DNA from: a virus
Virus record (IMG/VR): IMGVR_UViG_3300045988_137693
Direction: 5' to 3' (one strand)
DNA length: 56,335 nt
Made by a program: the position numbers and the translations under genes. Each line of letters begins with the position of its first letter. The stretch's first letter is position 1. Below the pieces are notes generated by a model that saw nothing but the letters and a program-made list of their open reading frames with translations, was not told the DNA's origin and did no database searches. This document shows, one piece after another, positions 10,042 to 56,218 of this stretch.

Positions 10042-10053
10042 AAAGGAGTGGGT

Positions 10054-13000
10054 ATGGACCAAATACGAGTGACTGAAGTCAAAAGCACCAAAACCGCAAC
10101 CAAGGTCATTGCAAATCCTAGGGCCCGTGGATTCAAGGATCTTATTGTCAAGGGTGGACAGTTCTACGCCGTATATGATCCAGATACGCACCTGTGGTCC
10201 AGAAGTGTCGGCCGTCTCTCCGAACTCATTGATAGGGATATCAGCGAGTATATCGCAACGCATTCGGACAAGACCTTGACTCCGGAATACATGGACAATA
10301 TGTCCAATGGACAATGGAACCGATATTTGTCGCAACTGAAGAACCTCGATGACAGCAGCATCATGCTGGATCAGAAGGTTATATTTGACAACGACGAAGT
10401 CGATCGCGACGACTACGCCTCGTTCAAATTACCGTATGATCTCATCGAGGGTCCGACACCGAACTACGATCGCCTGATGGAAACGATCTATGACCCGGAC
10501 GAGCGTCGAAAACTCGAATGGGGCATAGGTCTGATCGTGGATGGTAAGGACCAGAAACGTATTCAGAAATTCTTCGCCATTACCGGTGCTCCCGGTACCG
10601 GTAAATCGACGATTCTGAACATCATCCAGGAACTGTTCGGGAAGTACGTTTCGTTCTTCAATGCCAAGGAACTTGGTCAGGGATATCAATTCGCCACTGC
10701 TGCGTTCAAAAACGCTCCGCTCATCGCCATTCAAAGCGACGGCGATCTCTCAAAGATCGATGATAATTCATTGTTGAACACCATTGTTTCGCATGAATAT
10801 ATCAAAGTCAATGAGAAAGGCGTCAAGCAGTATGATATTCCGATCAAGACGATGCTGTTCATGGCTTCGAATAAACCAGTGAAGATCACAGACTCGAAAT
10901 CGGGTCTGATTCGAAGGTTGATTGACGTCTATCCATCAGGACGAAAACTCAGCAATGCTGAATATTTCGAAGCCATGGACGGTATCAAATTCGAACTCGG
11001 TGCGATCGCCCACCATTGCCGAGAGGTCTATCAGGAAATGGGTCCGAACGCATATGGCAATTACATACCAACCGAAATGGTGGCCAGAACGAATGATATG
11101 TATTCGTTCTTGTCAAGCGTTCTCGACCAATTCGAAGATGACGATCATATCGATGGTCTCGAACTTTGGCGTCAATATAAGGTTTGGTGCGATGAAGGTA
11201 ACGTGACCATGCGCATGAAACGTGATGACTTCCTGTTCGAATTGTCATCATATTTCAACAAGACGACCGATAACATCGTCAATGGTCGCAAATCCACTCG
11301 TAACACCGGTTTCGAGGGAATCCGTTGGGATAAATTCGAGAAAGTGGAGAAACCGAAGCTGATCGAAGCGAGAAAACTCGAACTTAATTCGACCGATTCG
11401 ACTTTCGACCACATGGCTCAGGATTGGCCGGCCCAATACGCCGCCGATAATCCAACCGGAGGACCTCGGTTGCCTTGGGATCAGGTAACCACCACATTGA
11501 AAGATGTGGACACCACCAAACTGCATTGGGTACGAGTACCTGAGAATCATATCGTCATCGACTTTGATCTCAAGGGCGATGATGGCGAGAAGAGCCTGGA
11601 ACGCAATCTTGCCGAAGCTGCGAAGTATCCGCCGACGTATGCGGAATTGAGCAAATCCGGTAAGGGCGTGCACCTGCATTATATTTACGATGGTGACGTG
11701 ACGAGGCTCAAACCTCTGATCGACATCAACGTGGAATGCAAGGTGTATCGAGGGAAGTCGGCATTGCGAAGGAAACTCAGCACATGCAACGATCTCGAAG
11801 TCGCGCATATTTCCAGCGGTCTTCCTCTCAAAGGAGATAAAACCATGATCAATGAGAAAGCGATCAAAGATGAGCAGCATCTTCGCAATCTTATCAAAGG
11901 AAACCTAAGAAAGGAATATTGTCCCGGAACCAAGCCATCGATCGACTTCATCTGTAAGTTGCTGGACGAAGCATACGAGTCTGGCATCCAGTATAACGTC
12001 GAAGACATGCGTCTTGATATTCTCAATTTCGCCATGAACTCCACGCATAATCGAGATTATTGCATGAAGGTTGTGGCGAATATGAAGCTTCGTTCCGACG
12101 AACCCGACAGCTTGGAACCGCCGAAGCATACCGGGACACCTGATATTCTGACGTTCTACGACGTCGAGGTGTTCCCGAATCTGTTCATGATCTGCTTCAA
12201 AGACGCAGGTGATGAGAAGGATCATCCGGTGAAGACCTTGATCAATCCAGATCCGAAAGATGTTCGTAAGCTCTGCGGCAAGGCACTGGTCGGATTCAAC
12301 AACCGACGATACGACAATCATATGCTCTACGCATGGGGTTGGCTCGGTTATGACAACCAACAGCTCTACAACCTGTCTCAGGATATCGTGGCTGGTGGGC
12401 CTCGCAGTCGAAACGCCATGTTCCAGAATGCCTACAACATCTCCTATACGGATATCTACGACTTCTCCGCAAAGAAGCAGTCGTTGAAGAAGTGGGAGAT
12501 CGAACTCGGGATCGATCATCACGAACTCGGCATGCCGTGGGACAAGCCGGTCGATCCGAAACTCTGGGATCTGGTGCAATCATATTGCGAGGATGATGTC
12601 CGAGCGACGGAAGCGGTGTTCAACCATCTTCATGAAGATTTCGTGGCCCGTCAAGGTCTGGCGAATCTGTCCGGCCTCACGCCGAATGATTCGACGAATC
12701 AACATACGGCCCAGATCATATTCGGAGACGCGAAGAATCCGCAGAAGGAATTCCCGTTCCCGGATCTGAGCGAAACCTTTCCCGGGTATACCTTCGACAA
12801 ATTCGCTGATAAAGATCACAAATCCAAGTATTTGGGCGAGTATCCTTCCGAAGGCGGATATGTGTGGGTATACGGTATGGCTAACGGCGACAATGGTCCA
12901 TATTACGGACGTCAGATCCAATGGTCCATGACCGGGAAGGACCGACTCGAACGATATCGTGAGGTCTATCGATCTCAGGATATGGATTTCGACACCATGC

Positions 13001-14154
13001 ACCCCGATCTGGCGAAGCGTCTCGAAGGATATTCATATGACGGTGCTGATCAGTTCATGCCTGAACTTCCAGACAAGACGCTCGGTGGTATGTTCGGCAA
13101 CGTCGGTTTGCTTGATGTGACCAGTCTGCACCCGTCGAGTCTTGAGGACATGAATTTCTTTGGTCCATACACCAAACGATTCAGCGACATCAAGGCCGCT
13201 CGTGTTGATATCAAGCACGGTGATCTCGAATCCGCTCGTCGACGTATGGATGGTGCTTTGGCTCCACTGCTTAAGGAGGGTGAAAACACCAAGTCGCTTG
13301 CACAGGCACTGAAGATCGTGATCAATTCGGTATACGGTTTGACCAGTGCGAAGTTCCCGACAAAGTTCAACGATGTCGGGAATGGAGCCAACGATCGCAA
13401 TGTCGACAACAAGGTCGCGAAACGCGGCGCCTTGTTCATGCTTCTGCTCAAGCAAAAGGTTATGGAGCTTGGCTACACAGTCGTGCATATCAAAACCGAT
13501 TCGATCAAGATAGCCGATATCGATGAATATGTTGTGACATTTGTCAATGACATGGGAGCGAAATATGGCTACGGATTCGAACTCGAAGCGATCTACGACA
13601 AGATGTGTATCGTCAACAAAGCGACGTACATCGCCCATCATTGTTACGGCGACGACGGGCACGACGCCGCATCGCATGGTGGTTGGGCGGCAACGGGTGC
13701 ACAGTTCGCAGTGCCCTACGTCTTCAAGACGCTGTTCTCTCATGAAACGATTGATTTCAAGGATCTTTGCGAAACCAAATCCGCCACGACATCGATCTAC
13801 CTAGACTTCAACGAGGGGCTACCCGAGGACGAACATCGCTATGATTTCGTCGGCAAGGTAAGCGCCTTCAGTCCGGTCCAACCGGGTTGTGGCGGAGGCC
13901 TGCTGGTCCGTGACAACGGCAACGGCGGTTACGCCGCGCTGTCCGGCACCAAAGGTTATCGCTGGAAGGAATCGAGCGTTCTCCGAGACGGTCACAAACA
14001 AGATGAAGTCGATTACACCTACTACGAACATCTCGCCGATGAGGCACGAGATGATATTTCGCAGTATGGTGATTTCGACTGGCTGGTAAGCGGCGAACCG
14101 TATGTTTCGCCGAATCCTGGAAGCAATAATCTGGTTGCTTCCTTGACTCGATAA
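10054..14154 (+). CDS. Fused replicase: D5/SF3-like P-loop NTPase + archaeo-eukaryotic (prim-pol type) primase + family-B DNA polymerase with 3'-5' exonuclease
   Basis: Walker A ITGAPGTGKST. Primase signatures VIDFDLKGDDGEKS and SKSGKGVHLHY. Exonuclease motifs FYDVEVF, FNNRRYDNHMLY, SYCEDDVRAT. PolB motifs A LLDVTSLHPSS, B KIVINSVYG, C HIKTDS. Confidence 0.9.
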   Translation: MDQIRVTEVKSTKTATKVIANPRARGFKDLIVKGGQFYAVYDPDTHLWSRSVGRLSELIDRDISEYIATHSDKTLTPEYMDNMSNGQWNRYLSQLKNLDDSSIMLDQKVIFDNDEVDRDDYASFKLPYDLIEGPTPNYDRLMETIYDPDERRKLEWGIGLIVDGKDQKRIQKFFAITGAPGTGKSTILNIIQELFGKYVSFFNAKELGQGYQFATAAFKNAPLIAIQSDGDLSKIDDNSLLNTIVSHEYIKVNEKGVKQYDIPIKTMLFMASNKPVKITDSKSGLIRRLIDVYPSGRKLSNAEYFEAMDGIKFELGAIAHHCREVYQEMGPNAYGNYIPTEMVARTNDMYSFLSSVLDQFEDDDHIDGLELWRQYKVWCDEGNVTMRMKRDDFLFELSSYFNKTTDNIVNGRKSTRNTGFEGIRWDKFEKVEKPKLIEARKLELNSTDSTFDHMAQDWPAQYAADNPTGGPRLPWDQVTTTLKDVDTTKLHWVRVPENHIVIDFDLKGDDGEKSLERNLAEAAKYPPTYAELSKSGKGVHLHYIYDGDVTRLKPLIDINVECKVYRGKSALRRKLSTCNDLEVAHISSGLPLKGDKTMINEKAIKDEQHLRNLIKGNLRKEYCPGTKPSIDFICKLLDEAYESGIQYNVEDMRLDILNFAMNSTHNRDYCMKVVANMKLRSDEPDSLEPPKHTGTPDILTFYDVEVFPNLFMICFKDAGDEKDHPVKTLINPDPKDVRKLCGKALVGFNNRRYDNHMLYAWGWLGYDNQQLYNLSQDIVAGGPRSRNAMFQNAYNISYTDIYDFSAKKQSLKKWEIELGIDHHELGMPWDKPVDPKLWDLVQSYCEDDVRATEAVFNHLHEDFVARQGLANLSGLTPNDSTNQHTAQIIFGDAKNPQKEFPFPDLSETFPGYTFDKFADKDHKSKYLGEYPSEGGYVWVYGMANGDNGPYYGRQIQWSMTGKDRLERYREVYRSQDMDFDTMHPDLAKRLEGYSYDGADQFMPELPDKTLGGMFGNVGLLDVTSLHPSSLEDMNFFGPYTKRFSDIKAARVDIKHGDLESARRRMDGALAPLLKEGENTKSLAQALKIVINSVYGLTSAKFPTKFNDVGNGANDRNVDNKVAKRGALFMLLLKQKVMELGYTVVHIKTDSIKIADIDEYVVTFVNDMGAKYGYGFELEAIYDKMCIVNKATYIAHHCYGDDGHDAASHGGWAATGAQFAVPYVFKTLFSHETIDFKDLCETKSATTSIYLDFNEGLPEDEHRYDFVGKVSAFSPVQPGCGGGLLVRDNGNGGYAALSGTKGYRWKESSVLRDGHKQDEVDYTYYEHLADEARDDISQYGDFDWLVSGEPYVSPNPGSNNLVASLTR

Positions 14155-16010: not shown

Positions 16011-16538
16011 ATGCCAGTCAACATCATCAAGCGCCCGAACGGTGACGTCAACAAGATCGAATGCGAGAACGTTCGTCTGATCTGGACGAATTTCGCAGGC
16101 CGCGAAGGCAAGTACAATCCGGCCGGCAACCGCAACTTCAACATCGTTCTCGAAGAATCAGATGCCAAAACGCTTCAGGACCTTGGTCTGAACGTCAAGT
16201 TCCATGAAGGCCGCGATGAAAACGATCCGGGCATCTACACACTTCAGGTGAAGATCAACTTCAAGTCCTACAATCCTCCGGAGATCTGGATGAAGAATTC
16301 TCACGGCAACGCCCAGTTGGATGAGGATTCCGTCAAGATGCTCGATCCGCTGGTGTCCGCCGACGCCGTGACGGAGTCGTGGCTGAGCTTCAATTTGAAC
16401 CATTACGAACAGTTCACCACCGCATATTTGCAGAAGCTGCTGGTAACGGTTCAGGAATCCGATTATGAAGCTCGATTCTTCGACGAACCGGATTCCGCCA
16501 TGAACACCATGACGTTCCACAAGGTTGAGAAGGACTGA
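16011..16538 (+). CDS. Possible single-stranded-DNA-binding protein (phage gp2.5-like type)
   Basis: The N-terminal block VRLIWTNFAGREGKYNPAGNRNFNIVL and an acidic C-terminal tail (FFDEPDSA) resemble phage SSBs. Call made by eye only. Confidence 0.45.
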   Translation: MPVNIIKRPNGDVNKIECENVRLIWTNFAGREGKYNPAGNRNFNIVLEESDAKTLQDLGLNVKFHEGRDENDPGIYTLQVKINFKSYNPPEIWMKNSHGNAQLDEDSVKMLDPLVSADAVTESWLSFNLNHYEQFTTAYLQKLLVTVQESDYEARFFDEPDSAMNTMTFHKVEKD

Positions 16539-17704: not shown

Positions 17705-18271
17705 ATGTCAGACACAACTTTTTCGCCGCTCATAACCCTGTCCAGCACATCATTCTCACCGATCGTGATGTATAACGCCATGTCTCTTACTGTCGAACAG
17801 ATGCGAGCATGTCAATGTGATACGCCTTTGGCCATGACCAAGCCGATGGCCGTTGCCAATAAAGGCCGCATGTACGCCTGCACCAGCTGGTGTCCGTTCT
17901 GCGGAGCGACCCAACACGTCACGGCGGATGCCAAGATGTTTCCGAGCACCGCTCCTGCGGATGTTTGGAGACTGGATGCGGACAAGATCTACGAATTCGT
18001 CTCGAGGATCAACGATCTTGGATATTTGCCGAAACATGCCGGTTCCGATGATCTCGCATGGACATTCCCGCAGAGCTATTCCGATGGAACGTTCTCAACG
18101 AACGTCTTCAACATCGCCGTCGGCCGTGGTCTCACGGTCCGGGCTCCGGAGTGCTATATTCTGCGAGACGAACAGCTCACGGTTTTCGATACCAAACTGC
18201 TGGATGAATTCGACCAGCTCGGAATCCTTGGCCTGATGTTTCCGAAGGAGCCGGCCCATGCCAACGCCTGA
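17705..18271 (+). CDS. Hypothetical Cys-rich protein (188 aa)
   Basis: aaaggag RBS then ATG 17705; CQC...CTSWCPFC. Confidence 0.6.
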   Translation: MSDTTFSPLITLSSTSFSPIVMYNAMSLTVEQMRACQCDTPLAMTKPMAVANKGRMYACTSWCPFCGATQHVTADAKMFPSTAPADVWRLDADKIYEFVSRINDLGYLPKHAGSDDLAWTFPQSYSDGTFSTNVFNIAVGRGLTVRAPECYILRDEQLTVFDTKLLDEFDQLGILGLMFPKEPAHANA

Positions 18272-22682: not shown

Positions 22683-23052
22683 TGTGTACAATTTGTGTGA
22701 CAAAAGCAGTTCTAAATGTGTACAATTTGTGTGACAAAATCGATGTGTGTGTACAATTTGTGTGACATGAGCGAAAATGCCCTTGATGCGGTAAAAACGC
22801 CAAAATCGGCTTTGTCACACAAATTGTACACACAAATCGGTTTTGTCACACAAATTGTACACATTTGAAAACGTCTTTTAGGGCCTGAAAACGTTGAAAT
22901 TTCAACGTTTTTGGGATTTTGAGGGTGTTTTTCTGTGTGTACAATTTCTGTGACGTACTTCTTATTCCGGTGAAAAAAGAAATATAATCATTATAATATA
23001 AAAATAAGTAAAGTATAACCTACGTCACACAAATTGTACACATTTGAAAACC
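22683..23052. repeat. Iteron cluster, palindrome and AT-rich tract; putative replication origin or regulatory hub
   Basis: The 20-mer TGTGTACAATTTGTGTGACA occurs on + at 22683, 22717 and 22748, and degenerate at 22936. Its reverse complement occurs at 22813, 22844 and 23023. A 24-bp perfect palindrome aaaacgttgaaatttcaacgtttt lies at 22888-22911, and an AT-rich tract at 22971-23020. Confidence 0.6.
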
Positions 23053-24024: not shown

Positions 24025-24324
24025 ATGGTTTTAGAGCGAGACTTCCAGCGCAAACTGGTCAAGCGCTTGAGGACAGAGATTCCAGGATCCATTGTCATGA
24101 AAGCCGATGCGAACCAAGTACAAGGTATTCCGGATCTCTTGATCCTTGCTCATGGCCGATTCGCTTCACTGGAAGTCAAACGCTCTGCTACCGCATCACA
24201 TCGACCTAATCAGGATCACTTCGTTCAGAAGATCAACGACGATGGCGGTTTTGCTTCGTTCGTCGATCCTTCGAATGAAGACGATGTGGTGGACCAAGTC
24301 AAGCGATATCTATCCAAAGCCTAG
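24025..24324 (+). CDS. VRR-NUC domain nuclease (PD-(D/E)xK fold)
   Basis: GIPDLLILAHGRFASLEVK catalytic pattern. Confidence 0.7.
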   Translation: MVLERDFQRKLVKRLRTEIPGSIVMKADANQVQGIPDLLILAHGRFASLEVKRSATASHRPNQDHFVQKINDDGGFASFVDPSNEDDVVDQVKRYLSKA

Positions 24325-24355
24325 GGAATCACGGCTTTTCATTTTAGGAGTCATC

Positions 24356-24949
24356 ATGACATTCACGTTCAATCAGCATACTGACCTTCAAGGTAAGCAC
24401 GCATATTTGAGTGCCAGTCATCATGTCTGGCTCAACTATGACGATGAGCATTTCAAGGATATCTTCTATTCCAATCTCATGAAGGAACGTGGCACACAGC
24501 TTCACGCCTTCGCCGAGTTTGCGAATAGGATGGGCCGGAAGATGCCGCGCAATCATGAGACCATCAACGAGTTCATCAATGATGGCCTTGGATACAACAT
24601 GAGCCCTGAAGTGGTGCTCTATTACAGCGAGTATTGTTTCGGGACTGCCGACCTTATCGGTTTTGATCCGAAGAAGAAACTGCTTCGAGTGTTTGATCTC
24701 AAGACCGGTCAGAAGGATGTGCTCGAGTTCGGACAGCTGCATGTGTATTGCGCTCTGTTCTGTCTCGAGTACAACATCAAACCGGACGATATCAATTTCG
24801 AATGCCGACTCTATCAGAATGATGAAGTTCGCATTGAAGAGTTTACTGATCCGGAAACCATCAAGGATATTATGGATCTTATCGTTCACGATGATAAGAT
24901 GATTCGTGAACTTCGCGCCGAAGCGAAAGCTAATAAATTGATCTTCTAG
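24356..24949 (+). CDS. RecB/Cas4-like PD-(D/E)xK exonuclease
   Basis: TADLIGF...LRVFDLKTGQ, then GQLHVYCALF (QLxxY-like). Confidence 0.7.
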   Translation: MTFTFNQHTDLQGKHAYLSASHHVWLNYDDEHFKDIFYSNLMKERGTQLHAFAEFANRMGRKMPRNHETINEFINDGLGYNMSPEVVLYYSEYCFGTADLIGFDPKKKLLRVFDLKTGQKDVLEFGQLHVYCALFCLEYNIKPDDINFECRLYQNDEVRIEEFTDPETIKDIMDLIVHDDKMIRELRAEAKANKLIF

Positions 24950-24962
24950 AAAGGAGCGGATT

Positions 24963-27764
24963 ATGGCTGAAGAGTCATATTCTGGTGATGACGAGTCGTT
25001 GTATGACTTCGAGCATTACGGTACTCCACATCAGGGTGCCACTCCGCATTCCGGACGGTACAAATGGGGTTCTGGCGATGAGGATTCCTTGACCAGAGCC
25101 AATGGCTTGCTGGGTCAAGTGGCTCGGCTCAAAGAGCAAGGGATCAAGAATTCAACAGAGATCGCACGAGCGCTTGGCATGACTACCACCGAGTACCGAG
25201 CACGATATTCCATGGCCTGGAATGAAGCCGAGAACTATACTCGTAACCGAGCGCTGAACCTTCAGAAGCAAGGCTGGGGTGCTACAGCTATCGGCAAAGA
25301 GCTTGGACGTTCTGAATCGACAGTCCGTGGCTGGCTCAAAGATGGTCGCGAGGTTCGCAATGATATCGCAACAGATATCGCTGAGAAACTCATGGCCTCT
25401 GTTCCGAAGAACGGTGGTCTTGATATCGGTAAATCCCAGGAATTGTATCTGGGGGCATCTGCCGATAAGCTCAAGGTTGCAGTGCAGATGGCAGTCGATA
25501 AGGGCTATGAAGTCCACTACATGTATGAGAATCAGCTCGGTACCGGTCCTGGCCAGAAGACGACCCTTAAGCTGTTGACCGCTCCTGGTGTCAAGGTTTC
25601 TGGCCCTGAAGGTCTGTATGCTCATCGTGAGCGTATCGCTTTCTTGGCAAAAAATCTTGACGACATTCCCGAAGGATCTTCCGGAGCACTGAAGCCTCCA
25701 GTATCGATCGATAGCAAGCGAGTTAAGATCGTTTATGCTGAAGACAAGTTTGCTGGATTCAAGGGCGTCGAACGAGATGGCGTGATGCTGATTAATCCCA
25801 AGGCTCCTGATCTTCAGTTGCCGGATGGTAAACGTTACGCTCAGGTTCGAATTGCCGTTGATGGCACTCACTACCTCAAGGGTATGGCGCTCGTTGGCGA
25901 TCCTCGGTCGTTCCCTCCTGGCGTCGATGTGGCCTTCTGCACCAACAAGCACAAGGGCACTCCGAAGATGGATGTTCTGAAGAAGATGCAGACTATCAAG
26001 TCTACCAACGGAACAGAAGTCATCGATACTGAGAACCCGTTCAAGGCCGCAGTGCGTTTGCAGCCTATGTATGTGGATCCGAAGACCGGTAAGAAGAAGC
26101 AATCCGCCCTGAATATTCTGAACACCGAAGGCGATTGGGATGGTTGGTCGAAGAATCTTCCATCTCAGATGCTTTCCAAGCAGGAACCTTCATTTGCTTC
26201 TCAGCAACTCGGTATCGCTCTGGATCGTTCTCGATTGAATCTGAAAGAAATCAAATCGTTGACCAATCCAGTCGTCAAGCAAAAGCTTCTTCAAGAGTTT
26301 GCTGACGAATGCGATTCCGCTGCCGTTTCTTTGAAGGCCGCTGCCGTCCCACGTCAGAAGTCTCATGTGATCCTTCCGATTAATTCGTTAAGTGATCGTG
26401 AGATCTATGCGCCGAACTACCGAAATGGCGAGAAGGTGATGCTGGTTCGTTATCCGCACGCTGGTCGATTTGAGATGCCTGAACTTGTGGTGAACAATCG
26501 AAACAAGGAAGGTCTTAAATACATCGGCAATGCGAAGGACGCAGTCGGCATTAATTCCAAAGTAGCCGAACGTCTATCAGGTGCTGACTTTGACGGAGAT
26601 ACTGTTCAGGTAATTCCGAATAAAAGTGGTCAGATTAAGAATGCCGCTCCATTGAAAGGACTTCAGGGATTCGATCCCAAAGAATCATACGCTTTGCCAA
26701 AAGACATCAAGCCTAACGACAAACGTTTGATTTCTCCTGAGATGAAGCAGCGTCAGATGGGTATCGTATCCAATCTGATTACCGATATGACAATCAAAGG
26801 CGCTCGTCCTGACGAATTGGTTCGAGCAGTTCGCCATTCCATGGTAGTGATTGATTCCGAAAAGCATAAGCTTGATTGGAAACAATCCGAGACTGATAAT
26901 AACATCAAGGCTCTCAAGGAGAAGTTCCAAAGTGGTGGAGCTTCTACACTTGTTTCAAGAGCTAAGGGTGTGGTCCGTCTTCCGGAGCGTAAGCCCCGAT
27001 CCATGAAGAATGGCGGTCCGATCGATCCTGAGACCGGTGAGAAGCGTTACGAACTTACCGGCGAGTCTCACAGTCGAGCAGTTCGTAATTCGAAGGGTGA
27101 GGTTGTTCGTTATGAAACAGTCCCCAACCTTACGAAGTCTACGAAACTTGCCGAGGCTAAAGATGCTAGGGAACTTTCTTCTGGTACTTTGATGGAATCT
27201 ATTTATGCTCGTTACTCTAACGGCATGAAAGATTTGGGTAACCAATCTCGAAAGGCCTACCTCCAGGCGGAGCCTTTCAAAGTAGACCCCCAGGCGAGAA
27301 AAACATACGCCCCTGAAGTTAAGAAGATGGTAGCCCAGCTCAATGAAGCCAAGAAGAACCAACCTCTAGAACGCCAGGCTCAGGTCATAGCCAACGAGAG
27401 GCTTCGCGCCATCAAGGAAGATCATCCTGACTATGACAAGGAAGATCTCAAGAAGGCTGGACAAAAAGAGCTCAAACGAGCTAGAGCTATTGTTGGTATT
27501 CAATCCAAGAGGGTGGATCTTACGGATCGAGACTGGGAGGCAATTCAAGCAAGGGCCATCTCAGCTAACAGACTTCGTGAGATACTGCAATACGCTGATC
27601 CCGATCGAGTTCGAGAACTGGCTACTCCGAGAAAGAAAGAAAAGCTTCCTTCTTGGGCTATTGCTAGAGCGAAATCGCTCATGAATGCTGGCTATACCAA
27701 TGCAGAAGTCGCAGATGCTTTGGGTATTTCGACTTCAACATTGTCTGAGAACCTTGGGAAGTGA
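24963..27764 (+). CDS. Candidate single-subunit two-barrel RNA polymerase (RdRP/QDE-1/YonO-like catalytic motif) flanked by HTH motifs
   Basis: VMLVRYPHAGRFEMPELVV...AERLSGADFDGDTVQVIPN (DFDGD at 26586-26600) parallels R-x-P...GGDLDGDTY of RdRP-family enzymes and NADFDGD of beta-prime. HTH-like motifs: STEIARALGMTTTEY, ATAIGKELGRSESTVRGWL, TNAEVADALGISTSTLSENL. Confidence 0.6.
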   Translation: MAEESYSGDDESLYDFEHYGTPHQGATPHSGRYKWGSGDEDSLTRANGLLGQVARLKEQGIKNSTEIARALGMTTTEYRARYSMAWNEAENYTRNRALNLQKQGWGATAIGKELGRSESTVRGWLKDGREVRNDIATDIAEKLMASVPKNGGLDIGKSQELYLGASADKLKVAVQMAVDKGYEVHYMYENQLGTGPGQKTTLKLLTAPGVKVSGPEGLYAHRERIAFLAKNLDDIPEGSSGALKPPVSIDSKRVKIVYAEDKFAGFKGVERDGVMLINPKAPDLQLPDGKRYAQVRIAVDGTHYLKGMALVGDPRSFPPGVDVAFCTNKHKGTPKMDVLKKMQTIKSTNGTEVIDTENPFKAAVRLQPMYVDPKTGKKKQSALNILNTEGDWDGWSKNLPSQMLSKQEPSFASQQLGIALDRSRLNLKEIKSLTNPVVKQKLLQEFADECDSAAVSLKAAAVPRQKSHVILPINSLSDREIYAPNYRNGEKVMLVRYPHAGRFEMPELVVNNRNKEGLKYIGNAKDAVGINSKVAERLSGADFDGDTVQVIPNKSGQIKNAAPLKGLQGFDPKESYALPKDIKPNDKRLISPEMKQRQMGIVSNLITDMTIKGARPDELVRAVRHSMVVIDSEKHKLDWKQSETDNNIKALKEKFQSGGASTLVSRAKGVVRLPERKPRSMKNGGPIDPETGEKRYELTGESHSRAVRNSKGEVVRYETVPNLTKSTKLAEAKDARELSSGTLMESIYARYSNGMKDLGNQSRKAYLQAEPFKVDPQARKTYAPEVKKMVAQLNEAKKNQPLERQAQVIANERLRAIKEDHPDYDKEDLKKAGQKELKRARAIVGIQSKRVDLTDRDWEAIQARAISANRLREILQYADPDRVRELATPRKKEKLPSWAIARAKSLMNAGYTNAEVADALGISTSTLSENLGK

Positions 27765-53429: not shown

Positions 53430-53882
53430 ATGGTAGCTTATCTTGACGAGGCGGGGGCTCGGTATCTAGTCAAGAAGGTTCTTGACCGGATCCAGCCCGT
53501 TGGATCTCTCTATTTCAGCACTAATAGCACGTCCCCAGCGAGTTTATTCGGTGGCACCTGGGAACGCTATGCGCAGGGACGAGTAATGGTCTCTGCATCG
53601 GACACCGATACAGATTTCACCGTCGGCAAAACCGGCGGAGAGAAGACGCATAGTCATTGGCTACCGCTTGGTATGGAGGATTTCTCCAACGGTGTGTTCT
53701 CTGTCACTTGGACGCGCAGTAACCAAGGTGGCGTCCGACGTCGAAGCATCGCTCCCGGCCATCACGATCTCTACTCCCCGGACTCCAGATCACCGCACTC
53801 GAACGGCACCGAGGAACAGTCGTATTCCGAGTCGAGTCTTCAGCCGTATGTTGCAGTGTATGTGTGGAGAAGGACCGCTTAA
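53430..53882 (+). CDS. Tail-tip protein 1 (PVGS..GGTWE...QPYVAVYVWRRTA family), current orientation of invertible cassette A
   Basis: taggagg RBS. 74-aa constant part ends in the 31-bp repeat; a 76-aa variable C-terminus follows. Confidence 0.8.
   Translation: MVAYLDEAGARYLVKKVLDRIQPVGSLYFSTNSTSPASLFGGTWERYAQGRVMVSASDTDTDFTVGKTGGEKTHSHWLPLGMEDFSNGVFSVTWTRSNQGGVRRRSIAPGHHDLYSPDSRSPHSNGTEEQSYSESSLQPYVAVYVWRRTA
53622..53652. repeat. Inverted repeat A, left copy (31 bp, in frame, encodes VGKTGGEKTH)
   Basis: gtcggcaaaaccggcggagagaagacgcata; exact reverse complement at 54085-54115. Confidence 0.95.
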
Positions 53883-54084
53883 GCGGTGCGACGCCAAATA
53901 TAGACAGCCACATATGGCTGCAAATTGTTATGCGGCATGTTTCCACCAGCCGATTTAGTTTGAGCAATATTGACGAACGAATCATCACGTCGACCGGCTT
54001 TTACTTTACCAGCGTATGGCGAATTAGTTCCATCAGCTACTGATATATCATGAGTGTGGGATGCCAACTCATCCACTGTAAGCG
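53653..54084. mobile_element. Putative invertible segment A (432 bp) carrying two convergent alternative C-terminal modules
   Basis: Bracketed by the perfect 31-bp inverted repeat. The two stop codons overlap within the palindrome ACCGCTTAAGCGGT (53874-53887). Confidence 0.7.
53879..54084 (-). CDS. Promoterless alternative C-terminal module (68 aa) for tail-tip protein 1
   Basis: Read from the right repeat: (VGKTGGEKTH)TLTVDELASHTHD...GGNMPHNNLQPYVAVYIWRRTA*. No RBS or start of its own. Confidence 0.7.
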
Positions 54085-54115
54085 TATGCGTCTTCTCTCC
54101 GCCGGTTTTGCCGAC
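54085..54115. repeat. Inverted repeat A, right copy
   Basis: tatgcgtcttctctccgccggttttgccgac. Confidence 0.95.
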
Positions 54116-54140
54116 TCCTCACGGAAAGGCAAGACCTATA

Positions 54141-54710
54141 ATGGTTGCATATTTGGATCAGGCAGGTGTACAGCACCTCATTGCTAAGATTCGCGATACG
54201 TTTTGGCCGGTCGGCACGATTCTGGCGACGACCACCAACACATCACCGGCGTCCTATCTCGGAGGCTCCTGGGAGGCGTATGCTCCCGGAAGGACGCTGG
54301 TGGGTGTAGATGCTTCTCATCCGCTTAACAGTACTGGTGGAAGCGAGACACATGAACATGGTCCAGGAACATTTGGTGCACAGGTCTCGCTTGACGGACA
54401 GAACACCGTCGTGCGACGTGTCCGTCTTTCCTCGTTCAAGGGTGATGTGCGCAAGAGCGGTGCCATCAATGGCGGTTCGTTCGACGCAACCTGGGGAGCT
54501 GCCATCGCCGGACATTCCGACATATGGATTCATGAGCGGAAGGTTTCCATAAACCTTCGTTCCATTACCAGTCTTTTTACTATTCCAGTTCACACCGCCT
54601 CTAGTTTCCAATTCAAATCCAAACGCGATACTAACAGGAATATGTGCATTGTCGTCTTTCCATACGACGTGTATTCCAGCATGATCGTTGAAGTTCGTTC
54701 CAGCCGCTAA
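54141..54710 (+). CDS. Tail-tip protein 2 (paralog of protein 1), current orientation of cassette B; atypical C-terminus, possibly degenerate
   Basis: MVAYLDQAGVQHL..PVGTIL..YLGGSWEAYAPGRTLVG, then VDASHPLNSTGGSETHEH.... It lacks the QPY..WRRTA end, and the last ~65-80 aa are antisense to the - strand module. Confidence 0.5.
   Translation: MVAYLDQAGVQHLIAKIRDTFWPVGTILATTTNTSPASYLGGSWEAYAPGRTLVGVDASHPLNSTGGSETHEHGPGTFGAQVSLDGQNTVVRRVRLSSFKGDVRKSGAINGGSFDATWGAAIAGHSDIWIHERKVSINLRSITSLFTIPVHTASSFQFKSKRDTNRNMCIVVFPYDVYSSMIVEVRSSR
54255..54306. repeat. Inverted repeat B, left copy (52 bp, in frame, encodes YLGGSWEAYAPGRTLVG)
   Basis: tatctcggaggctcctgggaggcgtatgctcccggaaggacgctggtgggtg; exact reverse complement at 54788-54839. 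Confidence 0.95.
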
Positions 54711-54787
54711 ATCAGTCGAACGGCCGACATCAACGGTTTTCGCACCACCCTGCTTGTTGAGAGTGAAGTCGGTATCCGTTGTGGACG
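54307..54787. mobile_element. Putative invertible segment B (481 bp)
   Basis: Bracketed by the perfect 52-bp inverted repeat, with family-like coding on both strands reading inward. Confidence 0.6.
54471..54787 (-). CDS. Promoterless alternative module for tail-tip protein 2 (no stop codon at the expected terminus)
   Basis: Read from the right repeat: (GRTLVG)ASTTDTDFTLNKQGGAKTVDV...GNLPLMNPYVGM..VERTA. Compare ASDTDTDFTVGKTGGEKT and GNMPHNNLQPYVAV in cassette A. Confidence 0.5.
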
Positions 54788-54839
54788 CACCCACCAGCGT
54801 CCTTCCGGGAGCATACGCCTCCCAGGAGCCTCCGAGATA
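54788..54839. repeat. Inverted repeat B, right copy
   Basis: cacccaccagcgtccttccgggagcatacgcctcccaggagcctccgagata. Confidence 0.95.
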
Positions 54840-54861: not shown

Positions 54862-55188
54862 ATGGATTGGATCGAAATGTTGATTACAATCGCTGGATCG
54901 GTATTCACATCCAGTGGATTGTGGACGTTGATCCAGTATAGAGTAAAACAAAAAGATACCGGAATTCTTATGACTCGTGGTATGGCACATTACCGAATCA
55001 TAGAGGAGGGTCAGAAATTCATCGATCGCGGGTGGATCACCCATGAGGAATATGACGACTTCATGAAGTATCTTGGCGACCCTTATCTGGAGTCCGGATC
55101 AAATGGTCTGGCGAAGAAAATGATCGACGACATATCCGACCTTCCGTTCAAATCGGTTTCGTCGATTCGTAGTACTATGGATCATTAA
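54862..55188 (+). CDS. Membrane protein with an N-terminal TM segment; possible holin or lysis accessory
   Basis: gaaagga RBS then ATG 54862: MDWIEMLITIAGSVFTSSGLWTLIQY... Confidence 0.5.
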   Translation: MDWIEMLITIAGSVFTSSGLWTLIQYRVKQKDTGILMTRGMAHYRIIEEGQKFIDRGWITHEEYDDFMKYLGDPYLESGSNGLAKKMIDDISDLPFKSVSSIRSTMDH

Positions 55189-55230
55189 GACGTCGCGTGA
55201 CATACATGGCTCTCAATGAAAGGAGCCATT

Positions 55231-55530
55231 ATGAACAACGACAAGATCTCTAATGGACACTATGAAGCACAACTCAAGAACGGATACTTAAGGATCAAGG
55301 GTGTAACACATCTTGGATGCTTAGCACTTACCGGTACCGTATATGACGGTGATATTCGTATACCATGCGAAGTCATCGAAAAAGACGGACTGGTAAGATG
55401 TGTAAGTTTCAAGCTGAAATATATGCCTTGGTTTGCTGGTAGAAGTTTTGTTAAGGGTTTGAAATTCATCATGTTCCCAAAAAGGATCTGTAAATCGAAA
55501 GCCATCATAGAGGCAATCATTTCAGAATAA
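55231..55530 (+). CDS. Hypothetical protein (99 aa)
   Basis: aaaggag RBS then ATG 55231. Confidence 0.55.
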   Translation: MNNDKISNGHYEAQLKNGYLRIKGVTHLGCLALTGTVYDGDIRIPCEVIEKDGLVRCVSFKLKYMPWFAGRSFVKGLKFIMFPKRICKSKAIIEAIISE

Positions 55531-55574
55531 AGCATAAGAGCCTATGCACCACGCATGGGCTCTTATGCTTTTCT
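55531..55574 (+). terminator. Intrinsic terminator (12-bp stem)
   Basis: Stem agcataagagcc/ggctcttatgct, then tttt. Confidence 0.75.
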
Positions 55575-55606
55575 CACGTAAATCATAGAAGAAAGGATCA
55601 TATATC

Positions 55607-55903
55607 ATGGCCGAACACGCCGATCAGAAAACGTCATTTCTCACCGATGCAGGTTATGACGGCCTCATCAAGGCTGCACGTCGATGGCTGCCAGCGCTCA
55701 GTGTCTTGCTGATCGTGATCGCCGGTGTCTGCACGCAGCTCGGTCACGTCCCCGGCATGGAGGCCGCCACGGCCGGTCTGGCCACGGTTTCCGGTATCTG
55801 TATGGCACTGAGCTGGGGTATCAACGAGCTGCTCAAGCGTGCCAAGGATCAGTGGAACACGTCGACTGATTCAGACAACACCACTGAGAGTACTGCCGAA
55901 TGA
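55607..55903 (+). CDS. Probable holin (two TM segments)
   Basis: WLPALSVLLIVIAGVCTQLG and LATVSGICMALSWGINELL, with a charged C-terminus. Confidence 0.55.
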   Translation: MAEHADQKTSFLTDAGYDGLIKAARRWLPALSVLLIVIAGVCTQLGHVPGMEAATAGLATVSGICMALSWGINELLKRAKDQWNTSTDSDNTTESTAE

Positions 55904-55909
55904 TATCGT

Positions 55910-55946
55910 ATAAGAGCCTATGCCACGCGCATGGGCTCTTATATTT
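55910..55946 (+). terminator. Intrinsic terminator, near-duplicate of the one at 55531
   Basis: Stem ataagagcc/gggctcttat, then atatttt. Confidence 0.7.
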
Positions 55947-55954
55947 TGTCTCGA

Positions 55955-55984
55955 CGCGAATCGTACATGGCCTTTAATGACAAG
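55955..55984 (+). promoter_or_regulatory. Conserved promoter-like box, copy 9
   Basis: cgcgaatcgtacatggCCTTTAATGAcaag. Confidence 0.55.
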
Positions 55985-56008
55985 AGAATCTATCATAAAG
56001 GAGCAATC

Positions 56009-56218
56009 ATGAACGATACATTTACTTATGTCAGCCAACAGCACAGCCAGCACACTTGCCTGGAGCTTGTTCGGTGGATCAAGAACCACTGCGATCCGGA
56101 AACGGAGAGCGGTATTCTTACGACCAAGACGAAGAAGCTTCGGGTGATTATGGTCACTACCAACCTGGAAGACATGAGCGCATTCGCAGATTATCTAAAG
56201 ACCATCACTCTCGTCTGA
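56009..56218 (+). CDS. Hypothetical early protein (69 aa)
   Basis: aaaggag RBS then ATG 56009. Confidence 0.6.
   Translation: MNDTFTYVSQQHSQHTCLELVRWIKNHCDPETESGILTTKTKKLRVIMVTTNLEDMSAFADYLKTITLV

Follow-up and report, generated by a model that had tools for sequence, protein, structure and literature searches.

Two small genes, here called A and B, lie in tandem at the end of the tail block of a gut phage genome, IMG/VR virus record IMGVR_UViG_3300045988_137693, and each carries, in reverse, an alternative version of its own 3' end. The window, as the term is used below, is the whole stretch of DNA that was analysed, 56,335 base pairs (bp) in length. It is a closed genome with a G+C content of 49.5%, and the 85-bp overlap of its ends, reported in an earlier account made from the letters alone (the sequence-only reading), is confirmed. 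Coding is essentially all on the + strand.

Structure of the cassettes

Both genes match the Pfam family Gp10_C (PF21939) and fall in tail and tail-fibre families of PHROGs. For the concatenated tail proteins the Gp10_C match, in three stretches, scores 177 bits against a curated cut-off of 27. The family profile of the two genes also matches the C-terminal domain of T4 gp10 in the PDB (2fkk, E 3.5e-13).

Each gene combines a constant 5' part with two alternative 3' modules, which lie tail-to-tail between the arms of an inverted repeat (Table 1). The left arm of repeat A codes VGKTGGEKTH, the end of the constant part of gene A, and the right arms are copies of the constant part's last 31 nucleotides (nt) in gene A and last 52 nt in gene B. 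The two pairs are the longest perfect inverted repeats within the 56 kilobases (kb); others of at least 22 nt occur only in a cluster of short motifs at 22683-23042. Inversion of the 494-bp (A) or 585-bp (B) segment would splice the other module onto the constant part. Such a flip would exchange the C-terminal 60-70% of a small Gp10_C-type tail-tip protein, presumed to bind the receptor.

Cassette A is intact. Simulated inversion gives a complete protein of 142 amino acids, with the same conserved LQPYVAVYIWRRTA end as the present 150-residue form. The alternative form has the classic GG..HTLT..E...H.H collar-type motif.

The cassette modules had been described as the only credible coding on the - strand, and a six-frame Pfam scan agrees. 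The only minus-strand open reading frames (ORFs) with a match above noise (E<1e-3, one chance leucine-rich repeat (LRR) hit aside) are the two Gp10_C modules.

Table 1. Positions of the cassette features, the candidate recombination genes and the neighbouring late genes in the window (aa, amino acids)
Feature	Position	Strand	Evidence or remark
Gene A, present form, 150 aa	53430..53882	+	Codons 1-74 constant, rest is the expressed module; Gp10_C; C-terminus LQPYVAVYVWRRTA
Repeat A, left arm, 31 nt	53622..53652	+	100% complementary to 54085-54115
Cassette A, active module (SHWLPLG...WRRTA)	53653..53882	+	Translation; relatives have homologous modules in both states, active and silent
Cassette A, silent module (TLTVDELASHTHD...WRRTA)	53879..54084	-	Intact ORF on simulated flip; Pfam Gp10_C
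Repeat A, right arm	54085..54115	-	Ribosome-binding region of gene B directly after
Gene B, present form, 189 aa	54141..54710	+	55-aa constant part, then truncated module running into antisense sequence; Gp10_C match
Repeat B, left arm, 52 nt	54255..54306	+	Codes YLGGSWEAYAPGRTLVG; 100% complementary to 54788-54839
Cassette B, + module, truncated	54307..54520	+	Lacks ~19 codons and stop
Cassette B, - module, truncated	54518..54787	-	Lacks ~10 codons and stop
Repeat B, right arm	54788..54839	-	52 nt, 100% match to left arm
Candidate single-strand annealing / single-stranded DNA-binding protein	16011..16538	+	phrog_4787 'single strand annealing protein', E 1.9e-33; Pfam PF24083
Candidate small endonuclease, VRR-NUC-like by motif	24025..24324	+	phrog_93 'endonuclease', E 6e-17
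Candidate PD-(D/E)XK-type exonuclease	24353..24949	+	phrog_3953 'exonuclease', E 3.3e-60; D...DLK motif
Large terminase	from 31273		Profile match
Portal	from 33352		Profile match
Protease/capsid	from 34763		Profile match
Endolysin GH25-CW_7-LysM	from 38873		Profile match
Tape measure, 2562 aa	from 40919		Profile match
Dit	from 48604		Profile match
Gp37-like tail protein	from 49540		Profile match; several fibre-like genes 3' of it
Upstream fibre or minor tail gene, 345 aa	52368..53405	+	PHROGs; anchor for relatives; outside the switch, context only

Damage to cassette B

In cassette B the two modules are fused at 54518-54521 with a microhomology of 4 nt. The deletion took the last ~19 and ~10 codons of the modules and both stop codons, which is why gene B now reads 189 amino acids into antisense sequence; in the flipped orientation it would read 266 amino acids, into the next gene. 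Gene B products of relatives have 145-156 amino acids and end ...CYWRRIA, and both modules of the window's cassette B have lost the conserved C-terminal motif of the family, PYVAVYxWRRxA.

Complete counterparts of both modules exist elsewhere (related loci are numbered with the prefix L). The + module is 95% identical to a complete module in L003 (11258-11445), which runs on to ...MEPYVAVYIWRRTA*. The - module is 88.8-92.5% identical to a complete, actively oriented module in five loci (L001, L004, L010, L014 and L037), where it ends ...MNPYVAVCYWRRIA*.

Because the C-terminal residues that are invariant in the family have been lost, gene B is probably inactive in either orientation. In the window genome cassette A alone can still give two complete proteins. 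The double inverton of the sequence-only reading therefore stands as far as the presence of both cassettes and the integrity of A are concerned, and falls as a description of B, which is not an intact switch. The deletion, midway between the opposed modules (54500-54545), lies where intact cassettes carry an imperfect palindrome, as seen at 53841-53920 in cassette A.

The same structure of cassette B is present in an ENA assembly 99.95% identical to the window. The strain occurs in at least two sequencing runs, SRR31145599 and ERR414427 (Logan contigs L264 and L265, 100% identical). These contigs stop one base short of the end of repeat A's left arm and were not counted as evidence of mixed orientations, since a graph built with k=31 is in any case broken by a 31-nt repeat. 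A search for exact matches to the 189-residue product of gene B returned nothing, though L263 encodes it, which is probably a difference in gene calling.

Natural inversion in related phages

Using the upstream fibre gene as an anchor, 38 related loci were retrieved from IMG/VR. In 27 of them the same position holds one perfect repeat pair or two, of 25-68 nt, with the arms spaced 218-598 nt apart (436-598 nt without the deleted cassette of L036).

Clean inversions between the repeats distinguish the members of three near-identical genome pairs. L022 and L024 are collinear on both sides of the cassette (98.9% identity over 3166 nt on the left, 100% over 537 nt on the right), and the 530 nt between are reversed at 99.8% identity. 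L010 and L014 have collinear flanks of 95.5% (left) and 97.4% (right) around 578 nt reversed at 98.8%. For L032 and L033, the flanks are 90.1% and 100% identical and collinear, and 572 nt are reversed at 97.6%.

The cassettes of the window take part in the same pattern. Cassette A is reversed relative to L014 and L026, and its silent module is the expressed one in L034/L262 and in L261, a separate metagenome contig. The orientation of cassette B is opposite to that in the five loci that hold the complete version of its - module. Thus both orientations of the two proposed invertible cassettes occur among relatives, with the breakpoints in the repeats, as the earlier account would have it.

The cassettes might nevertheless be evolutionary leftovers that invert too rarely to have a role, the differences in orientation being rare accidents or choices made in assembly. 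Cassette B of the window genome is already broken, and the evidence comes from assemblies of metagenomes, in which the assembler can take either path at a repeat. However, an assembler that chooses between two paths implies that both orientations were present in that sample, and orientation differs between genomes whose flanks are 99-100% identical. The silent module is an intact in-frame ORF with a conserved C-terminus in 33 of 36 cassettes (25 genomes). Both repeat arms are identical within each genome, except that L001 has single mismatches at the outer edge and L035 a deletion of 11 nt. We therefore think it most improbable that the cassettes are relics.

Of about 13 module families, most are active in some genomes and silent in others. 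Since the silent modules are also intact, flipping would be frequent enough for selection to keep both. Flipping thus appears to be a working feature of this cassette family, in which both modules are seen by selection.

Modules have also been transferred between A-type and B-type cassettes, at short patches of conserved sequence, which suits a homology-driven process. For instance, the + module of cassette B in the window is found in the A cassettes of L003, L006, L024 and L027. On a larger scale, the fibre cassette region is shared, at nucleotide identities from 81.2-81.7% (L010/L014) to 98%, by two phage lineages with no more than 35-50% identity between their early proteins. Because the region is so alike in lineages with divergent early proteins, the cassette has evidently passed horizontally between them.

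Judged from these genomes, the design is evidently not a one-off and is common to a family of gut phages. Among 77 relatives of the gene in bacterial genomes, an inverted repeat of at least 20 nt was found at a single locus (L127). This was rejected as a further inverton: the repeat is unrelated to the gene, and no recombinase is nearby.

A homopolymeric G tract lies in codons 7-10 of gene A in the relatives (L001-L038), equivalent to 53448-53459 of the window. Eight G residues keep the gene in frame (11 loci), and seven (8 loci) or six (5 loci) stop translation after ~12 amino acids. The length differs within near-identical pairs: seven in L008 and eight in L009, six in L010 and eight in L014, seven in L032 and eight in L033. 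One possibility is a slipped-strand on/off switch that acts on top of the inverton; another is a homopolymer error of assembly. In the window it is interrupted (GAGGCGGGGGCT) and in frame.

Host of the phage

The Bifidobacterium phage BitterVaud1 (MT006236), from honeybee gut, has a single-module gene and no inverton. Its G+C content is 49.4%, and it gives collinear matches to 39 proteins of the window. The exact strain of the window is present in human gut metagenomes. Taken together, the collinear matches, the like G+C content and the gut origin make a Bifidobacterium the probable host of what is a virulent-looking gut phage. A near-identity search of the GenBank phage collection with the window gave no match.

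Search for a recombinase

That the complete genome encodes no invertase or integrase was the central claim of the sequence-only reading, which proposed profile searches as a check. These have now been run and uphold it. Pfam searches of 87 non-overlapping + strand ORFs (E<=0.01) found no Resolvase, Recombinase, Phage_integrase, rve, DDE, IS110-type or HUH domain. The other 310 stop-to-stop ORFs of at least 60 amino acids, taken from all six frames, contain no recombinase, integrase or transposase domain at E<=0.05. ORFs below that length, which are outside the scan, are too short for a catalytic domain. In PHROGs, 50 early and middle proteins and 10 others matched no integrase, recombinase or transposase family. 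There is likewise no reverse transcriptase domain among the six-frame ORFs of at least 60 amino acids, and no pair of template and variable repeats.

The relatives give a similar picture. Their accessory ORFs without a counterpart in the window (42 clusters) hold holin, HNH and homing-type nucleases and immunoglobulin-like (Ig-like) domains, and no recombinase, integrase or transposase domain was found among them. The clusters come from about 20 close relatives, covered almost end to end by means of two more anchors; for the second, more distant lineage the sequence to hand spanned ~20 kb per genome.

Instead, the repeats might be recognised by a new type of recombinase, hidden among the phage proteins of unknown function. 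Annotation is lacking for about half of the early and middle genes, and a new fold would be invisible to profile searches. The largest unknown protein with helix-turn-helix matches (933 amino acids, 24963-27764; weak HTH_7, HTH_23 and HTH_38) was considered as a hidden recombinase and ruled out, because it matches the polymerase family phrog_4291 end to end and carries a DFDGD motif. The sole HTH_7 match in the window (E 0.0056) is its C-terminus, and a PDB sequence search with it gave no match. The small genes on the 3' side of the cassettes (54862-56218) were rejected as switch factors, as they show no link with the presence of an inverton across the 38 loci. Two unrelated repeat classes, with highly variable sequences, also ill suit a sequence-specific enzyme. 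An unrecognised recombinase of this kind is accordingly a poor prospect.

The phage encodes proteins whose annotation points to recombination of a more general kind. A candidate single-strand annealing protein, an exonuclease and a small endonuclease (Table 1) could together form a phage recombination kit, and a SNF2 helicase is also among the annotated proteins. The small endonuclease has weak matches to Cas4 and to the nuclease of PDB entry 4qbn. PDB sequence searches with the three proteins returned nothing significant. The two nuclease genes lie in the interval 24025-24949, which had earlier been singled out as a source of candidates; the annotation of both supports that choice, and their part in flipping is something we infer.

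Evolution of the repeats

The longest string common to repeats A and B, on either strand, is 5 nt, which equals the median of shuffled sequences, and repeat A has no internal dyad symmetry. As had been suspected, the two repeat pairs are a poor fit for one site-specific enzyme.

The repeats also vary between genomes. The 24 A-type repeats comprise 18 haplotypes with 10 of 24 columns variable, and 10 of 24 positions distinguish the A-type repeats of one phage clade from those of the other. Every one of the 10 B-type repeats is a haplotype of its own, with 5 of 52 columns variable. Since the arms are identical within genomes yet differ between genomes, substitutions have been copied repeatedly from one arm to the other, a form of concerted evolution. 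A conservative cut-and-rejoin reaction at one point only swaps sequence and therefore cannot give copied changes.

The two boundaries of the repeat behave differently. When all cassettes are aligned with their flanks, the outer boundary is fixed in each clade, which marks the right arm as an old partial duplication of the constant part. The inner boundary reaches exactly as far as the modules share sequence, with a maximum of 68 nt (L012 and L034). This would be expected if homology, and not a site, defines the repeat.

Mechanism of inversion

The sequence-only reading had left three possible agents: a host-encoded invertase, homologous recombination across the 31 or 52 bp, or an unrecognised phage protein. 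Homology is favoured because the arms evolve in concert and the repeats share no core, although this does not settle the choice. On balance we judge the chances about even that the cassettes form a homology-driven inverton, in which general recombination acts on short perfect repeats and no dedicated invertase takes part.

According to this model, the flip would occur by homology-dependent recombination between the repeats during phage replication. The likeliest agents would be three phage proteins (the single-strand annealing protein, the exonuclease and the small nuclease) or otherwise host RecA. Repair of heteroduplex would copy changes from arm to arm, and a crossover of the same kind between inverted repeats would be an inversion. 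Which proteins flip the cassettes, and how often, is what we infer.

The chief competing explanation is a site-specific invertase that comes from the host chromosome or a resident prophage and works in trans on the repeats when the phage infects. Invertase-driven tail-fibre switches have just this anatomy of constant part, tail-to-tail modules and short repeats, and the window phage is related to a Bifidobacterium phage. In Bifidobacterium prophages, moreover, an inversion of ~500 bp has no flanking recombinase, and an enzyme in trans has been proposed (Mavrich 2018, PMC6109161). Such an enzyme would have to work on two repeats with no common core beyond chance, one of them without dyad symmetry, and on A-type repeats as different as those of the two clades. 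The known crossover motifs of bifidophages are absent from the cassettes: TTCCCTAACCC does not occur anywhere in the window, and CAGGGTTA occurs once, at 17733, far from them. Conservative exchange would also leave changes shared by both arms unexplained. Finally, the cassettes occur in two lineages with very different early genes, so one enzyme would be needed in all hosts. An invertase supplied in trans is thus a serious but rather unlikely explanation.

Several points weigh against the homology-driven route. The codons of the repeats show somewhat less synonymous diversity than the remainder of the constant part; this mild reduction could reflect a recognition site at the level of DNA, as an invertase in trans would need. 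Homologous recombination is near its lower length limit with repeats of 25-36 nt, and flipping might be too rare for a switch. Perfect repeats are also present in Mu and P1, where an invertase nevertheless does the work. Copying between arms proves homologous exchange over evolutionary time, not that such exchange is the main route of inversion, and the inversions themselves are seen by comparing assembled genomes and not in reads from one population. As for the agents, the label of the annealing protein rests on family names (a structure model from a 5-sequence alignment had a predicted local distance difference test (pLDDT) score of 48 and was not used). The three genes are also found in BitterVaud1, which has no inverton, so that their presence does not discriminate.

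A fuller version of the homology-driven model can be offered tentatively, and we hold it to be somewhat improbable as a whole. It states that virulent gut phages of one family, which probably infect Bifidobacterium, operate a programmed switch of a receptor-binding protein that needs no dedicated recombinase, is flipped by the phages' own annealing-protein and exonuclease system and is possibly supplemented by the poly-G tract as an on/off control. General phage recombination would in this way be put to use as an engine of phase variation.

Other features of the genome

Profile searches of the window proteins show a late region of siphovirus type (Table 1). A 19-nt motif, TGTGTACAATTTGTGTGAC, is present in seven copies, in both orientations, in the 360-bp intergenic region 22683-23042, where none is expected by chance. 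The cluster looks like an origin, an operator array or a group of promoters.

A fusion protein of 1368 amino acids (10048-14154) joins primase/D5-type helicase motifs in its first half with a match to a DNA polymerase family (phrog_4210). The family phrog_4291, to which the 933-residue protein belongs, is annotated 'RNA-dependent RNA polymerase'. With helix-turn-helix motifs at both ends, this protein may be a YonO-like single-subunit RNA polymerase.

Two copies of a GC-rich hairpin followed by a T run, 82% identical, stand at 55527-55571 and 55903-55947, behind successive small genes, and resemble intrinsic terminators that arose by duplication.

Implications

Tail-fibre invertons are a textbook phage host-range switch, and they are taught as requiring a neighbouring invertase. 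Here a family of gut phages keeps such switches intact, and no recombinase gene has been found in it. If the homology-driven model is true, 25-70 bp of perfect homology and ordinary recombination functions suffice for a working switch. Surveys of invertons that are keyed to a nearby recombinase would then overlook such viral loci.

The cassettes bear on how virulent phages track variable surfaces in a host genus that is important in the infant gut. They also suggest a minimal, enzyme-free design for engineered host-range switches.

Comparison with known systems

A full-text literature search found no description of such cassettes in BitterVaud1-like phages. Several known systems share part of the design.

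The classical examples are the tail-fibre switches driven by serine invertases: the G segment of Mu (Gin), the C segment of P1 (Cin) and the Min system of p15B. As in the window, a constant 5' part is combined with alternative, opposed 3' modules between inverted repeats, and inversion alters the receptor-binding end of a tail protein. In these systems, however, the invertase gene, with a Resolvase domain and HTH_7, adjoins the segment, whereas none was found in the window genome. Their crossover sites are dyad-symmetric with a common core, in contrast to the unrelated repeat classes here and the lack of a dyad in A. The proteins differ as well, those of the window belonging to the Gp10_C family and the Mu fibres being of S/U type.

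Closer in host is the Rin shufflon of Bifidobacterium prophages, in which a tyrosine invertase lies adjacent and acts at the 11-bp rix site TTCCCTAACCC (Mavrich 2018, PMC6109161). It too varies the C-terminus of a receptor-binding protein by inversion, probably in the same host genus. In tyrosine-recombinase shufflons such as Rci and Rin, each module is preceded by a short asymmetric crossover repeat. Unlike Rin with its flanking tyrosine recombinase, the window has no Phage_integrase match.

The bifidoprophages 689b-1 and Bb423phi2 have a second inversion, of ~500 bp and reported at the 8-bp sequence CAGGGTTA, for which an invertase in trans was proposed (PMC6109161). Like the cassettes of the window, this locus swaps the 3' end of a tail-region gene by inverting ~500 bp and has no flanking recombinase. 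These phages are temperate and encode an integrase, though, and the genes had no identifiable homology. The window family has perfect repeats of 25-68 nt, concerted arms and no recombinase found in the genome.

Loci served in trans by a global invertase, for example those of Mpi in Bacteroides, resemble the window in that no recombinase is at the locus. The loci that Mpi-type enzymes serve have a repeat consensus in common, whereas here A and B are unrelated and the A-type repeats variable.

Diversity-generating retroelements, such as that of BPP-1, also diversify, in a programmed way, the end of a phage tail protein that binds the receptor. They do so with a reverse transcriptase and a template/variable repeat pair; the window has neither, and has identical inverted repeats and two preformed modules instead.

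Programmed inversions by homologous exchange, with no dedicated invertase, are known from bacteria. Examples are the sap locus of Campylobacter fetus, which is RecA-dependent, and hsdS of Streptococcus pneumoniae, which is PsrA-independent. There, as in the window, inverted copies of a conserved coding stretch switch a surface or specificity protein. Homogenised arms, as expected of a sap-type system, are what the window family has: the arms are identical within genomes across 18 and 10 haplotypes. The bacterial systems are chromosomal, with repeats of 85 bp to several hundred bp, whereas here the locus is in a phage with repeats of 25-68 bp, and the recombination proteins are likely to be phage-encoded.

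The cassettes are thus functionally like Mu G, P1 C, p15B Min and Rin, but they lack the features that define those systems, namely an invertase gene and a common crossover site. Their logic appears to be that of the bacterial RecA-dependent programmed inversions, from which they differ by their location in a phage and their much shorter repeats.

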